Source of the DNA: Felixounavirus LF110P1
Sequence record: OZ035744.1
Direction: 5' to 3' (one strand)
Length of the DNA: 64,000 nt
Shown here: one piece after another, positions 23,578-30,463 of the stretch
Numbering within the stretch: position 1 is the first letter of the stretch
Layout of the letters: every line of letters begins with the position of its first letter
Position numbers and translations under genes: made by a program
The notes under the pieces: generated by a model
The model's input: only the letters and a program-made list of their open reading frames with translations
What the model was told of the DNA's origin: nothing
The model's database searches: none

Positions 23578-23583
23578 AGTTTA

Positions 23584-23610
23584 AGGCTCCTTTTTACGGG
23601 AGCCTTTTTT
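23584..23610. terminator. Bidirectional rho-independent terminator between convergent late (+) and replication (-) blocks
   Basis: AGGCTCC tttttacg GGAGCCT followed by TTTTTT; flanked by the 3' ends of convergent genes. Confidence 0.65.
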
Positions 23611-24514: not shown

Positions 24515-25060
24515 TCAAAAGTGTCCTTTTACTTGTGGAACATAAATTTCAAAGGTTGCTTTACCATCATCCGATGGCCTTGACTGTACCTTTGCAAATA
24601 CACGGCTATCATACAGCTTCTCAAAGAAGTTTTCAAAAGGTAAATGCACAGTGGCCTCTTCAGTAACTTTATGGAAGACTGTATGGAACACCACACCAGC
24701 ATACGGTAAAGCATTGACAAGGACACCTGCACCACCAATTACAAAGACATCTTCATCAATAGAGCTATCAAGATACTTCAAAAATGCTCCAAATGACTCT
24801 TTACTGGCTTTAGCATACATTACATCATCTTTGCCAAAGTCTATGCCTAAGTATGGTACAGAATTTGTTAAGATTAGGTTTGCACGTTCTGGTAGAGGTT
24901 TACTACCCAGAGTCTTAAAAGTCTCATTACCCATCACTACTAAGTTATTTTTAGTGAGTCTCTTAAACTCTTGCATGTCCTGTTTATGTCGAGGCCACGG
25001 CATACCAGTTGGAGTACCAAACTCACCATTTTCACCACTTGCAAAGATTAATTTAATCAT
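24515..25060 (-). CDS. folA: Dihydrofolate reductase
   Basis: N-terminal MIKLIFASGENGEFG...MPW and VVMGNETFKTLG...PLPERANLILT pattern typical of DHFR; adjacent to thymidylate synthase. Confidence 0.8.
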   Translation of the reverse strand: MIKLIFASGENGEFGTPTGMPWPRHKQDMQEFKRLTKNNLVVMGNETFKTLGSKPLPERANLILTNSVPYLGIDFGKDDVMYAKASKESFGAFLKYLDSSIDEDVFVIGGAGVLVNALPYAGVVFHTVFHKVTEEATVHLPFENFFEKLYDSRVFAKVQSRPSDDGKATFEIYVPQVKGHF

Positions 25061-25317
25061 TTTGTAAATCCTTTCTTAATGAACCAGTTGATAACACTCT
25101 TCACAACTTTACTACGATGGTAGATAAAATGTGGAGAGGGTTGGTATGAACCATAAGCCCAGAAAGCGATAATTTCATTACACCCTGTGCATCGGGTACT
25201 TTCTTCAGCAATATGACCGTTGACTATTTCACTTACCTCACCTTGTAAGTCTGTACACCCGCAATGTGGACAACGGATAGGTGTTCCATCAGACTCATAG
25301 CAGTGTTCAATTTTCAT
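25057..25317 (-). CDS. Zinc-ribbon protein
   Basis: Two Cys pairs, CPHCGC and CTGCNE; 86 aa. Confidence 0.4.
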   Translation of the reverse strand: MKIEHCYESDGTPIRCPHCGCTDLQGEVSEIVNGHIAEESTRCTGCNEIIAFWAYGSYQPSPHFIYHRSKVVKSVINWFIKKGFTK

Positions 25318-25833
25318 CTATTTAACCTCAAAAACTGGTTCAAGAACCAATATAAAGTCTACACAGTCATCTTCTTCATCCAGAATACCATCAAAGTTCT
25401 TAGGTACAAAGTCGAAGAGGCTCATAGAATATCGGTCAGAAGTAACCCTGATAGTGTTCCCTATATTCTCTACAGTTAATATTGTACGGCTTTCTGTTAC
25501 CTCACTTAGAAGATTACTCACAAAGTCATCTAAGAAGTGTTTCATCAGTGACTTGAAGCCTTTAGGGTAATCTGTACCAGAGTATGTTTCAATCTGAGGA
25601 ACAAGCTTAACATTTATACTAGTCTTTGTTAAGAACGTTTTAGAGAACATGCTATCAGGTAGCTTACAAACAGTCTTTCCAGTACCTTCATGTTCAATCT
25701 CAACAAAACCAGCTTCGTCGCCACATGTAACTATTTTAAAAGATGCTTCATTCTCATACTGTGAAGCCATAAACTTTTTAAGCATTTCTTTAAGGAAATC
25801 TGCATGAGCATCTTGTAAGTAGATATCAATCAT
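25318..25833 (-). CDS. Hypothetical protein
   Basis: 171 aa ORF, tightly packed with neighbours. Confidence 0.4.
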   Translation of the reverse strand: MIDIYLQDAHADFLKEMLKKFMASQYENEASFKIVTCGDEAGFVEIEHEGTGKTVCKLPDSMFSKTFLTKTSINVKLVPQIETYSGTDYPKGFKSLMKHFLDDFVSNLLSEVTESRTILTVENIGNTIRVTSDRYSMSLFDFVPKNFDGILDEEDDCVDFILVLEPVFEVK

Positions 25834-25846
25834 AGTTAATCACCTA

Positions 25847-26206
25847 TTATGGGAACAAGCACTTAATGTCATCGTTTTTGAAAACAAAACTTGTGTAGTT
25901 GTGACCATCAACATCCAACCAAACAGCCTGAACATCCACACCATCAAGATTGTGGTAAAGTTCTTTGATGAAGTGGTCTTTCACAATCTGACTGCTAGTT
26001 GTTTCCAGCTTAATGTTCGAGATTGCTGAACCTACAGCCATATAGCCCATGACACGTTTCTTTTCAGTATGCTTAATCTTACCATCTTTGTAAGCCATAA
26101 TGAGACTGGAAAGAATCTTCACACCGTAATACTTTTCAAGGTGAGTAGGTACACCATAAAAGCCTAATGCGAAGTTTTCAGAGTGGATAATGTTTTCACG
26201 TTTCAT
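25847..26206 (-). CDS. Hypothetical protein
   Basis: 119 aa ORF. Confidence 0.4.
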   Translation of the reverse strand: MKRENIIHSENFALGFYGVPTHLEKYYGVKILSSLIMAYKDGKIKHTEKKRVMGYMAVGSAISNIKLETTSSQIVKDHFIKELYHNLDGVDVQAVWLDVDGHNYTSFVFKNDDIKCLFP

Positions 26207-26207
26207 A

Positions 26208-26507
26208 TTAATCTGCCAGCCTTAAATTGAAATTAACACCAAATTTTTCACATACCCCCAACATATACTCAAGGGAAACATTCCCAGTGAGGTGGATTAT
26301 GTTGGATACACGAGCCTGAGAGATACCACAAATTTTAGCAACTTGCTCTTGAGAAAGACCTCTGGATTTAATCTCTCTCTTAAAACGATGTGCAACGAAG
26401 TCTCTCATTTCGTCTACATCCATTGGACAAATATAACTCTCCATTTCAGCCTCTCTATCAGCCTCCCAATCATCTTGTGGGGCATAAGGGTCAAAAACCT
26501 CATTCAT
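26208..26507 (-). CDS. Helix-turn-helix (XRE-like) DNA-binding protein; start at 26507 or 26537
   Basis: C-terminal LSQEQVAKICGISQARVSNIIH helix-turn-helix signature; acidic N-terminal region. Confidence 0.5.
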   Translation of the reverse strand: MNEVFDPYAPQDDWEADREAEMESYICPMDVDEMRDFVAHRFKREIKSRGLSQEQVAKICGISQARVSNIIHLTGNVSLEYMLGVCEKFGVNFNLRLAD

Positions 26508-26712
26508 CTTTCTTCTTCCGTTTGCGTGAAGTGTCAATCAATGAGTCTATGTTAGTAGCCCTGACCTTTTCACGTTCATCGTTAAGATAATCGTCAAGAG
26601 CCTTTTCAATCTGTGAATCATCTTGACAGATAACTGTAAAGACTGTAAAGCCGTCTGTATCGTCAATTATCTTACCATAACCGCTTCTGGGATGTAACTT
26701 TTTAAGAGCCAT
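26500..26712 (-). CDS. Small hypothetical protein upstream of and coupled to the HTH gene
   Basis: 70 aa; 8-nt overlap with the ATG of the HTH ORF; basic C-terminus SRKRKKKDE. Confidence 0.4.
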   Translation of the reverse strand: MALKKLHPRSGYGKIIDDTDGFTVFTVICQDDSQIEKALDDYLNDEREKVRATNIDSLIDTSRKRKKKDE

Positions 26713-26713
26713 A

Positions 26714-27097
26714 TCAAATACCTGTGCAGCTTCTGTTTTCTAAGAAATACTCAACACCATACATAGCTTTTTGCATCAAATCTTCTTTAAACTGGATACG
26801 ATGGTTGAGCATAGCCTGTACATCAATATCATCACGGTGTTTCTCTTTAATGTTTGCAGATTGCAGGAAATACTCTGCAAGAACACGATACTGGTAGTCA
26901 GTCACCTTATCAGTCATCTCTGTTAAAGACTCTTCAGAGATGGGTTTAAGTAACTCACCTTTAGATAACGCAACACCTTTTACAATCTGGCAAGTGTCTT
27001 CTGGAACACCTGATAAGTCCACATTTGGAAGTTCTGTTGCATTGACTGGTAAGTTCATTGCCATAACCATTGCAGTAGCTAATAAAATCTTTTTCAT
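26714..27097 (-). CDS. Secreted/periplasmic protein with signal peptide
   Basis: N-terminal MKKILLATAMVMAMNLPVNA with a likely cleavage site after VNA; 127 aa. Confidence 0.5.
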   Translation of the reverse strand: MKKILLATAMVMAMNLPVNATELPNVDLSGVPEDTCQIVKGVALSKGELLKPISEESLTEMTDKVTDYQYRVLAEYFLQSANIKEKHRDDIDVQAMLNHRIQFKEDLMQKAMYGVEYFLENRSCTGI

Positions 27098-27222
27098 AAT
27101 GACCTCAAAGTTATATTAAATTTTGTATTACATTGAGTATAAAAATAAGCTATAACACCTGACTTGTCAACAGATTTTATAGCTTATTTGGCAGATTTTT
27201 TATAAGGCTACTGCCATCCTTC

Positions 27223-27460
27223 CATACATTACCTAACCAAGCCTAACATCACACAACCAGACCGAGCCGCACCCCGCCTTATTAAAAGACCCTCTTAAAG
27301 ACCTTTTAAAAAGGTAAGTCTCATTTTAATGTAGTTGAGACTAACTACCCATACCATACCTTACACCGCCGTACCACACCGAACATCACCAAACCATACC
27401 AAGCCAGAGCCTACTGTACCATACCGAACATCACTTAAAAACCCTCTTAGAAGACTCTTA
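27223..27460. repeat. Two degenerate tandem copies of a C/A-rich, G-poor element with a 19-bp direct repeat
   Basis: GTACCACACCGAACATCAC (27371-27389) and GTACCATACCGAACATCAC (27416-27434); TTAAAAGACCCTCTTAAAGACC (27282-27303) and TTAAAAACCCTCTTAGAAGACT (27435-27456). Confidence 0.5.
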
Positions 27461-27521
27461 AGTGATGCTGGTGAGTACCCGTTGGTTTATGCTGCTCAGT
27501 ATACTCACCAAATTTTCTATG

Positions 27522-27710
27522 TCAACAACTTTCTAATAAAGTTTTATGAAGACTTTGCTTAACAACCCGCCTCACATGCCTATGCTCTTTCTTAATAAAG
27601 AGTGACCTCTTCTTGACAGAGCGCCTATTCTTGTAAGTATTACTAGGATACTTATCATGAACCGGACAACAACTCCCCGGATTTGTAAACTTGATAATCT
27701 CTCTTTTCAC
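27522..27710 (-). CDS. Small basic protein (possible; coupled to ligase stop)
   Basis: 62 aa, Lys/Arg-rich; ATG overlaps the ligase stop by 1 nt. Confidence 0.3.
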   Translation of the reverse strand: MKREIIKFTNPGSCCPVHDKYPSNTYKNRRSVKKRSLFIKKEHRHVRRVVKQSLHKTLLESC

Positions 27711-29635: not shown

Positions 29636-29848
29636 TCAGAGGCCAATACTAATACGTTCACCCTTGAGGACTCCTGTACGGTCTCTTACAATCTTACCGT
29701 CAACAATAAGGATATGCGCAGACTTTAAAGATTCACTATTAAAACCTTTTACGAACTTACTAGGCATCACCACAATAAGCATCTCTTGAATCAACTCTGG
29801 AGTGTAGCAGTTGTCGTGAAGTTGTTGGATAACGTCTGCAAGTTTCAT
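29636..29848 (-). CDS. Hypothetical protein
   Basis: 70 aa ORF. Confidence 0.3.
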   Translation of the reverse strand: MKLADVIQQLHDNCYTPELIQEMLIVVMPSKFVKGFNSESLKSAHILIVDGKIVRDRTGVLKGERISIGL

Positions 29849-29899
29849 ATAACCTCCTATATCAGATATTGTATAAGGTACTCTTCCATGAGCACCTTG

Positions 29900-30463
29900 T
29901 CAAGATAGTTTTGCAAACTCTCCGTGGAGTTTCACAGCAGCTTCACAGTAAGCTTTATGGGCTTCTTCAGGGGTGTCAAACATACCAAGATGATAGTTTT
30001 TACCTTGTAAACGAATCATTGCTCTAAATCTTACACCTATCTTCTGCACACCTTTTGGCAACCCAGATAGGGACTTTCTTGACCGATTGCAAGAGTTTTG
30101 TGAAGCTGTACAAACCCTTAAATTCAAGTACCTATTGTCCCAACCATCACCATTCTTATGGTCAACCTGTAAGGTTTTATCAGGCAGGTATCCATCCACA
30201 TATAGTATTGCTAGACGGTTAGCTTGGTAGCCTTTACCATCAAGCAATAACTGAACAGACTTGTGACCGTCTGTGTTTATCCTATAATTTCCTGCCTTTT
30301 TACCTCCAAAACGAGAGTTGAAGTTCTTATTGCCTCGTGATACCGGCTCTCTAAACTTCCAAGTAAAGACCCCTGTTTCGGGGTCGTAGTCCAATAGCTC
30401 CTTAAGACGAATTTCTGTAATCATTTCAACACCATCAATGTACTTCCAACCAGCTCTTACCAA
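29900..30463 (-). mobile_element. Free-standing HNH homing endonuclease (NUMOD4-like N-terminus, HNH core, AP2-like DNA-binding C-terminus)
   Basis: LKELLDYDPETGVFTWK (NUMOD4-like); QVDHKNGDGWDNRYLNLRVCTASQNSCNR (HNH); GVRFRAMIRLQGKNYHLGMFDTPEEAHKAY (AP2-like); start overlaps the 3' end of the polymerase gene by 29 nt. Confidence 0.7.

Follow-up and report, generated by a model that had tools for sequence, protein, structure and literature searches.

Toxin-upstream type II toxin-antitoxin modules of the HigB/HigA kind carry a small gene 5' of a gene encoding an XRE-type helix-turn-helix (HTH) protein, with overlapping stop and start codons, and show a mobile, patchy distribution. In acr-aca operons, a variable and patchy small inhibitor gene stands 5' of the gene for a conserved HTH repressor (Aca); Aca1 of Pseudomonas phages is needed by the phage, and its loss is costly. 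Aca repressors and the controller (C) proteins of restriction-modification systems belong to the XRE/Cro-C1 regulators. For Felix O1, the publication of the genome describes the temporal control of transcription as unknown (PMC3185647). Here, we analyzed a stretch of 64,000 nucleotides from Felixounavirus LF110P1 (sequence record OZ035744.1; hereafter the window), which comes from a genome of the Felix O1-like type, and examined a block of six small genes, labelled A to F and all located on the minus strand. One of them, D, encodes a predicted XRE-type regulator and is coupled to E, a gene of 70 codons. With a probability of roughly 0.45, we favor the reading that D, together with its partner E, regulates its own operon, possibly through a quasi-palindrome at the promoter, the other four genes being separate cargo.

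The XRE-type regulator gene D and its coupled neighbor E

The initial annotation had described a cluster of six small genes at 25057–27097, comprising a zinc-ribbon protein, a 70-amino-acid protein coupled to an XRE-type HTH protein, a signal-peptide protein, and two unknowns. The six genes were indeed found at this place, closely packed (intergenic gaps of 0–13 nt, otherwise overlaps), and these descriptions were borne out by sequence motifs, Pfam matches, and the gene overlap. They are also annotated in Bas63, JLBYU32, VpaE1, and Felix O1, and fall into six separate PHROG families (E-values of 1e-26 to 1e-89), of which that of D is labelled "transcriptional regulator" and the other five are labelled as having an unknown function. 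When compared to four Felixounavirus genomes, the ratio of non-synonymous to synonymous substitution rates (dN/dS) of the six genes was 0–0.20, a sign of purifying selection. A to F are genuine coding genes and not chance open reading frames (ORFs).

Gene D (26208–26507, minus strand) encodes 99 amino acids from a conserved ATG. A TTG start that would extend it to 26537 was also considered and discarded, as comparison with homologues favors the ATG at 26507. The protein passed the Pfam HTH_3 model (PF01381; 3.1e-9, 37.1 bits for a cut-off of 23, residues 53–103 of the 109-amino-acid form), scored 27.2 bits against a cut-off of 27 with HTH_37, and matched phrog_1373 at 3.8e-26. In precomputed annotations, PF01381 was assigned to every D homologue except one partial match (P0118), and PF13744 to all but two. 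The recognition-helix region, ISQ(A/S)RVSNI, is conserved in Mooglevirus and Suspvirus, and a 40-residue acidic N-terminal extension with the motif MNEVFDPYAPQDxWEADRE is conserved within the Ounavirinae. The closest solved structures are those of generic XRE proteins (PezA, HigA, HipB, and controller proteins), with E-values of 0.017 or weaker. From the bona fide HTH_3 match, D is predicted to be a sequence-specific XRE-type DNA-binding regulator.

Gene E (26500–26712, minus strand; phrog_4473) encodes 70 amino acids, and 8 nt (ATGAATGA) are shared between its stop and the start of D. In the comparison of four Felixounavirus genomes, 5–10 synonymous changes were counted in E for 0–1 non-synonymous changes, and the identical protein sequence was present on more than 1000 contigs. 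The region of the N-terminal hairpin varies, whereas the C-terminal tail, VRATN(I/L)DSLIDTSRKR(K/R)KKDE, is so well conserved that the last 20 residues are invariant between genera, with codons varying at synonymous sites. The most conserved parts of the two proteins are thus the tail of E and the N-terminus of D, and their invariance despite synonymous differences indicates selection on the peptides themselves. The AlphaFold2 model of E, which is of low confidence (pLDDT of 64.6), shows two strands (13–19 and 22–26) forming a beta-hairpin, followed by a helix (32–69); it gave zero Foldseek matches at E ≤ 0.001. No match to E was found in Pfam, NCBIfam, or PADLOC, nor in the PDB by sequence or profile, and the name "heme-degrading enzyme-like" given to E orthologues was unsupported in every library searched.

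The block is a regular constituent of one group of phages. A 4.4-kb query covering the region retrieved 259 phage records at 90–96% identity, nearly all of them from Felixounavirus (Ounavirinae) phages that infect E. coli, Salmonella, or Shigella. Using tblastn, E, F, and B were each found in 258 phage records with an identical organism breakdown, and C in 300, the additional ones being Ounavirinae of Erwinia, Pectobacterium, and Hafnia at 35–39% identity. D, E, and F were not found in the Erwinia and Hafnia phages of this subfamily, which retain C. The order F-E-D-C-(x)-B-A-DHFR-ThyA, in which x denotes extra gene(s) in other genera, is common to Felixounavirus, Mooglevirus, and Suspvirus; a single extra gene of 157–167 codons lies between C and B in Mordin (Mooglevirus), EcSzw_1 and SUSP2 (Suspvirus), and two more distant metagenomic relatives, and the overlap or abutment of E and D is retained in all five. 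Identity to the Mooglevirus and Suspvirus proteins was highest for D (72–78%), followed by C (66%), A (62–69%), E (56–63%), B (36–42%), and F (31–35%). Among 5.8 billion proteins, E formed 11 clusters and D 15 clusters, and the relatives checked for context were all from Ounavirinae. The 15 clusters of D are all at least 62% identical, and most of the full-length ones lie on contigs of 50–90 kb, of which the two examined were Ounavirinae. Separately, E or F was present at 96–100% identity to this Felixounavirus in records MG065668 and MG065664 (Campylobacter phages A126 and A132) and in one "Staphylococcus" record; the two Campylobacter phage entries are probably mislabelled or contaminated.

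The arrangement of E and D had initially been compared with HigB/HigA-like modules, according to which E would be a growth-arresting toxin and D its neutralizing, autorepressing antitoxin. The layout fits, with the small gene first, an 8-nt overlap, and an XRE-type gene second, and D also showed sub-threshold matches to models and structures of the HigA, HipB, and PezA antitoxins (E-values of 1e-4 to 0.5). Moreover, insertions in the orthologue of D were strongly deleterious and those in the orthologue of E heterogeneous in the fitness data described below, as expected where the loss of an antitoxin outweighs that of its toxin. However, the identity of the supposed toxin, its distribution, and its pattern of conservation all contradict this comparison. 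Sequence, profile, and fold searches gave zero support for E as a RelE/HigB-like toxin: neither a toxin family in Pfam, NCBIfam, or PADLOC nor any solved structure or fold was matched, and the low-confidence model, a hairpin and one long helix, is unlike the alpha/beta core of RelE/ParE. The pair is not mobile either, since relatives of E and D were found at one fixed position in virulent Ounavirinae and never in bacterial chromosomes or plasmids; they are vertically inherited in this position. E is nearly invariant (dN of about 0), which is more conserved than expected of a mobile toxin, and insertions in its orthologue had a negative mean score in their own right. A toxin-antitoxin function of E and D is therefore highly improbable.

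Promoters and a candidate operator 5' of gene F

The packing and overlaps of the genes, together with the promoters, hairpins, and terminator around them, indicate that they form one operon. At the distal end, A overlaps the DHFR gene by 4 nt (ATGA), and a bidirectional intrinsic terminator (23583–23606, both strands), which matches t79/t80 of Felix O1 (Whichard 2010), closes the operon after ThyA. At the proximal end, F is preceded by a non-coding spacer of 424 bp (27098–27521) and by an ORF for a very basic, Cys-containing protein of 62 amino acids (27522–27710, minus strand; phrog_5428) that begins at the stop codon of the ligase gene; the exact sequence of this protein was not found in a collection of 15 billion proteins, although its family is known. 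The block was thus rightly placed next to DHFR, but it does not adjoin the ligase gene as had been stated.

Two promoters were recognized in this proximal region. In the entire window, only P1 (27498–27526, minus strand; GTTGACA-16-TATACT) matches the sigma-70 promoter consensus perfectly; the −10 element of P1 sits within a hairpin (GGTGAGTA...TACTCACC). P2, detected by a promoter scan and as an inverted repeat, is a composite of hairpin and promoter (27142–27189, minus strand): an AT-rich hairpin with 19-nt arms (27143–27161 and 27171–27189) carries TTGACA in its loop; TATTTT lies 17 nt 3' of this sequence, and TTTTTATACT comes next. The 86-nt stretch comprising P2 and an adjacent small hairpin folds as RNA at −25 kcal/mol (z of −4.9), and in a diverged locus of a distant relative (L012), one A-T pair of the repeat is replaced by G-C, a compensatory change, and two further changes are of the wobble type. 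That D uses the inverted repeat with 19-nt arms around the −35 element of P2 as its operator was considered and rejected: the pairing is kept through these three changes, the repeat folds well, and a T-run follows, so that a terminator/promoter hairpin is the better interpretation.

A second element is a better candidate. An AT-rich quasi-palindrome (AATACAAAATTTAATATAA; 27111–27129, minus strand) lies between the −10 element and the ribosome binding site of F. When the promoter-to-ATG regions of six diverged lineages were aligned, the only conserved blocks were TTGACA and this quasi-palindrome, an 18-bp block whose position is kept in the six otherwise diverged regions, with the family consensus TATAYA-N6-TATATA (AATACAAAATTTAATATA in the window and TATATAGAAAATTATATA in Mordin). 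The exact motif is unique within the window, where ATANAAAATTT is present only at this site and at 27510–27520 in P1; ATANAAAATTT was not found in the 60–87 kb region of Bas63. From its position and conservation, we propose the quasi-palindrome as a candidate binding site of D.

Fitness of orthologues and a proposed regulatory role of D and E

Published data from PhageMaP, in which barcoded insertions were scored in Bas63 on four hosts (bioRxiv 10.1101/2024.10.10.617714), cover g32 to g37, the orthologues of A to F. Bas63 (JohannRWettstein, MZ501086) runs about 116 bp ahead of the window coordinates. On the scale used, neutral genes score about +1, ligase −0.3 to −1.8, and capsid or polymerase genes −2 to −4 (BW25113 and DH10B). 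On each of the four hosts, insertions in g35 (D; −1.17 to −1.47) and g34 (C; −0.87 to −1.34) were about as costly as those in ligase; for g36 (E), the mean was −0.5 to −1.4 with a variance of 0.8–2.1. On DH10B, g32 (A) scored −0.12 to −0.17, as opposed to −0.7 to −1.25 on the other three hosts; the score of g33 (B) was about 0 to +0.3, and that of g37 (F) about 0 on three hosts and −0.31 to −0.98 on DH10B (bioRxiv 10.1101/2024.10.10.617714). Since the downstream genes g33, g31, and g30 showed milder effects than g34 to g36, simple polarity fails to explain these phenotypes. The block had been called accessory, a term that suits the nearly neutral B and F but not C, D, and A, which are kept in order and are costly when disrupted in Bas63 (for A, on three of the four hosts). 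A to F are therefore a conserved and partly fitness-critical stretch of a replication-arm operon, more than a set of dispensable accessories. As to timing, reverse transcription PCR in Felix O1 showed that ORFs 80, 83, 84, 87, and 88 are maximally expressed 25 min after infection (PMC3185647); the correspondence of these ORF numbers with A to F was deduced from the position of terminator t80.

These observations can be brought together as follows. A to F would form the promoter-proximal part of a single transcript, F-E-D-C-B-A-DHFR-ThyA, that belongs to the replication arm of a virulent phage. At the composite hairpin/promoter elements 3' of the ligase gene, transcription would be restarted by host RNA polymerase, and it would end at the terminator after ThyA. 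Through the 8-nt start/stop overlap, E would be made in a fixed ratio with D. A dimer of D might bind the quasi-palindrome just 3' of the −10 element and thereby limit or time a very strong promoter, with E acting as a partner or modulator of D, possibly by contact between the invariant basic C-terminal helix of E and the conserved acidic N-terminal extension of D. The loss of D would be costly because expression of the block and of the surrounding replication genes would be mis-set. F may be exported cargo and B dispensable, fast-evolving cargo, and A may be needed only on hosts that retain functions deleted in DH10B, which would fit a role in counter-restriction or counter-defence.

Such a regulator would have relatives in the XRE/Cro-C1 group. 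Like controller proteins and Aca repressors, D is encoded behind a strong promoter with a quasi-palindrome nearby, its loss is costly, and, besides passing HTH_3, it weakly matches controller-protein models; it differs from them by its 40-residue acidic extension and has no relative outside the Ounavirinae at the sensitivity used. This likeness raises the question of whether E and D belong to an anti-defence operon of the acr-aca type, in which E and/or F would inhibit host immunity and D would be an Aca-like repressor whose loss is harmful via runaway transcription. Consistent with this idea, a small protein gene lies directly 5' of the HTH gene, the sigma-70-like promoters ahead of both are the strongest of the window, the candidate operator overlaps the start region, both F and B are fast-evolving, and D is needed on every host tested in Bas63, as Aca1 is in its phages, although some members of the subfamily do without D. 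However, E is invariant, strictly syntenic, and relevant to fitness, unlike the interchangeable and patchy cargo of Aca systems, and its disruption is costly on laboratory hosts to which no defence was added. In addition, no match to a PADLOC-related or known anti-defence family was found for these proteins. The PhageMaP text, which deals with 12 defence strains, does not name g32 to g37 among its validated counters or triggers, and in the two defence-strain tables consulted, their scores were equal to those on plain hosts (bioRxiv 10.1101/2024.10.10.617714). An acr-aca type operon is thus unlikely, and of the host-takeover or anti-defence roles initially suggested for the cluster, there is some support for A alone.

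The six genes might also form no functional unit and simply share a transcript with DHFR and ThyA, with D acting on the host or on distant phage promoters. Their six PHROG families have no domains in common, and evolutionary rates, phyletic ranges (wider for C), and phenotypes differ among A to F. Extra genes separate C and B in other genera, and the evidence for the operator is positional only. On the other hand, E, D, and F always co-occur, the E/D junction is retained, and the conserved AT-rich element is located at exactly the promoter of the block in six lineages and nowhere else in the approximately 87 kb examined. We consider a mere assembly of unrelated genes doubtful.

Regulation of the operon by D and E has points against it as well. 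Binding of DNA by D, autoregulation, and contact between E and D are all steps that we infer, and with a pLDDT of 64.6, the model of E permits no structural statement on an interaction surface. Sites that fit the relaxed consensus TATAYA-N6-TATATA show no enrichment in the window (12 found for 15.8 expected), so that the case for the operator rests on positional conservation, and the conserved AT-rich 5' leader could serve translation or RNA stability instead. The fitness data come from a preprint and from Bas63, a relative that is 93–98% identical to the phage of the window, and the phenotype of g36 is ambiguous, as its variance is very high and insertions at the 3' end of E would also hit the translation of D. 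Finally, the patchy presence of D fits a regulator of its own module as well as a general temporal regulator.

A bolder version would see in E and D the switch that has been missing from the picture of temporal control in Felix O1-like phages, with D a repressor or activator set by E, whose basic helix would dock on the acidic motif of D or on a host target, and with C as a further essential factor. If this were true, it would be a two-protein device for the timing of transcription that is undescribed for any virulent phage; at present, it seems quite unlikely. Under the more modest reading that D and E regulate their own operon, general principles remain unchanged, and the exact protein sequences of all six genes were already in public collections, as were the knockout phenotypes of their orthologues in the literature. 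Nevertheless, since D is a clear regulator that matters for growth in Bas63, and E probably matters too, the pair offers an entry point to the question of temporal control in Felix O1.

The accompanying genes and the repeats around the block

Among the other genes, we rank C (25847–26206, minus strand; 119 amino acids) as the most intriguing unknown of the block. It is a subfamily-wide orphan needed for normal growth, and its confident alpha/beta model (pLDDT of 91.6, pTM of 0.85) had no close match among solved structures and matched uncharacterized phage proteins only in a library of viral structures. When 1.84 billion representatives were searched exhaustively with a profile, five real clusters were obtained. 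Matches to giant proteins were taken as spurious, as they covered short stretches only (one of them, P0100, is a cadherin-like repeat protein), and the name "nucleoside triphosphate hydrolase" carried by C orthologues was supported neither by the libraries nor by the model. The protein thus combines a subfamily-wide presence and a strong fitness effect with a predicted fold that lacks a close solved counterpart.

Gene A (25057–25317, minus strand; 86 amino acids; phrog_2993 at 4.7e-41) encodes a zinc ribbon, C16-x2-C19 ... C43-x2-C46 (CxxC-N23-CxxC), whose four Cys are invariant in six diverged homologues. The authors of the Bas63 study label g32 "Lar" and propose that it serves to evade type IV restriction (bioRxiv 10.1101/2024.10.10.617714). 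A shares the motif CP(x)CGC ... C(x)GC with Lar (RalR) of the Rac prophage, and its four Cys align with those of RalR; it has in addition a conserved C-terminal part of 35 residues (FWAYGSY...NWFIKKGF) that Lar lacks. True membership in the Lar family was rejected: A scored 18.1 bits with TIGR03655 (cut-off of 39.6), four of the six family members matched this model at E of at least 0.0024, and identity to RalR was 24% over 37 amino acids with an hhalign probability of only 17.7%. All six family members scored better with the NCBIfam model ECs_2282_CxxC, still below its cut-off (20.7 bits for A, cut-off of 37). A is thus Lar-like only at the level of the motif. Because the requirement for its orthologue depends on the host strain, A is the best counter-defence candidate of the block, and it offers easy access to a host barrier found in K-12 derivatives but missing from DH10B. 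Two allelic lineages of A were observed within Felixounavirus, with a synonymous divergence (dS) of 0–0.08 to JLBYU32 and VpaE1 and of 0.65–0.74 to Bas63 and Felix O1; neighboring genes showed a dS of about 0.1–0.3, which suggests allelic exchange by recombination.

Gene F (26714–27097, minus strand; 127 amino acids; phrog_4332) is fast-evolving and begins with a signal-peptide pattern recognized by inspection (MKK-ILLATAMVMAMNL-PVNA/TE, the stroke marking the predicted cleavage site), consisting of MKK, a hydrophobic stretch, and V-N-A, without a lipobox cysteine. M1, K2, K3, A20, C36, and C124 are invariant in six homologues that are otherwise about 33% identical, A20 being the Ala at position −1. 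F is thus predicted to be exported (Sec, signal peptidase I type) as a mature part of about 107 amino acids with two invariant Cys, which are probably joined in a disulfide bond. No family or PDB match was found for F, including by profile search. Spackle (Sp) of T4, a periplasmic superinfection-exclusion protein, is likewise small, has a signal peptide and conserved Cys, and is encoded among replication genes, but this is an analogy only: F shows no sequence or profile similarity to it past the signal peptide, where the alignment stops, and was discarded as a relative. In locus L012 (2133–2675), a membrane protein of 180 amino acids encoded 5' of F ends in a motif resembling the C-terminus of F (YGFKFYVDNKSCTGV compared to YGVEYFLENRSCTGI; hhalign probability of 34%), and it may carry a paralogous exported domain.

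Gene B (25318–25833, minus strand; 171 amino acids; phrog_4422) is also fast-evolving, with a dN/dS of 0.14–0.20, and no Pfam, NCBIfam, PADLOC, or PDB match was obtained for it with a single sequence or a profile. More generally, profile searches of the PDB with the families of B, F, and E, and Pfam scans of all family members, found nothing. In SUSP2, two ORFs of 100 and 68 amino acids take the place of a single B orthologue (L007, 3847–4364), consistent with B being dispensable.

The interval between F and the ligase gene looks like a hot spot for insertions and deletions. In JLBYU32 (L001, 4609–5639), SUSP2 (L007, 733–1763), and a metagenomic relative (L014, 1519–2549), two extra genes (195 and 146 codons) lie exactly between the two repeat/hairpin units, and the window holds both units without these genes. 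Two arrays of about 12–16 degenerate GGTNN pentamers were also observed on the minus strand (27212–27272 and 27349–27434), with a 10-nt super-period and a short hairpin before each. They are cleaner in Bas63, (GGTATGGTTA)n, differ among close relatives, and are lacking in Mordin and EcSzw_1. An Rfam scan of the whole window, including these arrays, gave no match; the arrays may bind protein as RNA or DNA, form a G-quadruplex, or represent iterons.

Hairpins of this kind recur elsewhere. In the early region of Bas63 (L011, 4459–10244), most of the approximately 90-nt spacers between small early genes contain one out of a small set of recurrent promoter-like hairpins, most often TTTACA-[GGGGCTTA]-GATAAAGT-[TAAGCCCC]. 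They recall the composite promoter-terminator elements termed PeSL in T4-like phages (Comeau et al. 2014, PMC4122927), which likewise place early-type promoters in conserved hairpins, flank small genes, and mark points of insertion and deletion. Here too, an early-type promoter lies in a conserved hairpin, a T-run comes after the hairpin, and the arrangement recurs between small genes; the differences lie in the phage family and the sequences, in the −35 or −10 element being located in the stem or loop, and in the joining of two units to GGTNN arrays.

Further along the replication arm, overlapping AT-rich palindromes (CATATAACCTCCTATATCAGATATTGTATA; 29846–29875), located just 5' of a gene at 29636–29848, were caught by the relaxed operator pattern. 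An ORF of 187 codons with an HNH-type motif (29900–30463, minus strand) is likely a homing endonuclease gene inside the replication arm; the corresponding gene of Bas63 is annotated as a putative homing endonuclease, and in L012, a gene with HNH_3 and AP2 domains follows the DNA polymerase gene in the replication arm. The ligase gene is annotated as two coding sequences in several relatives.

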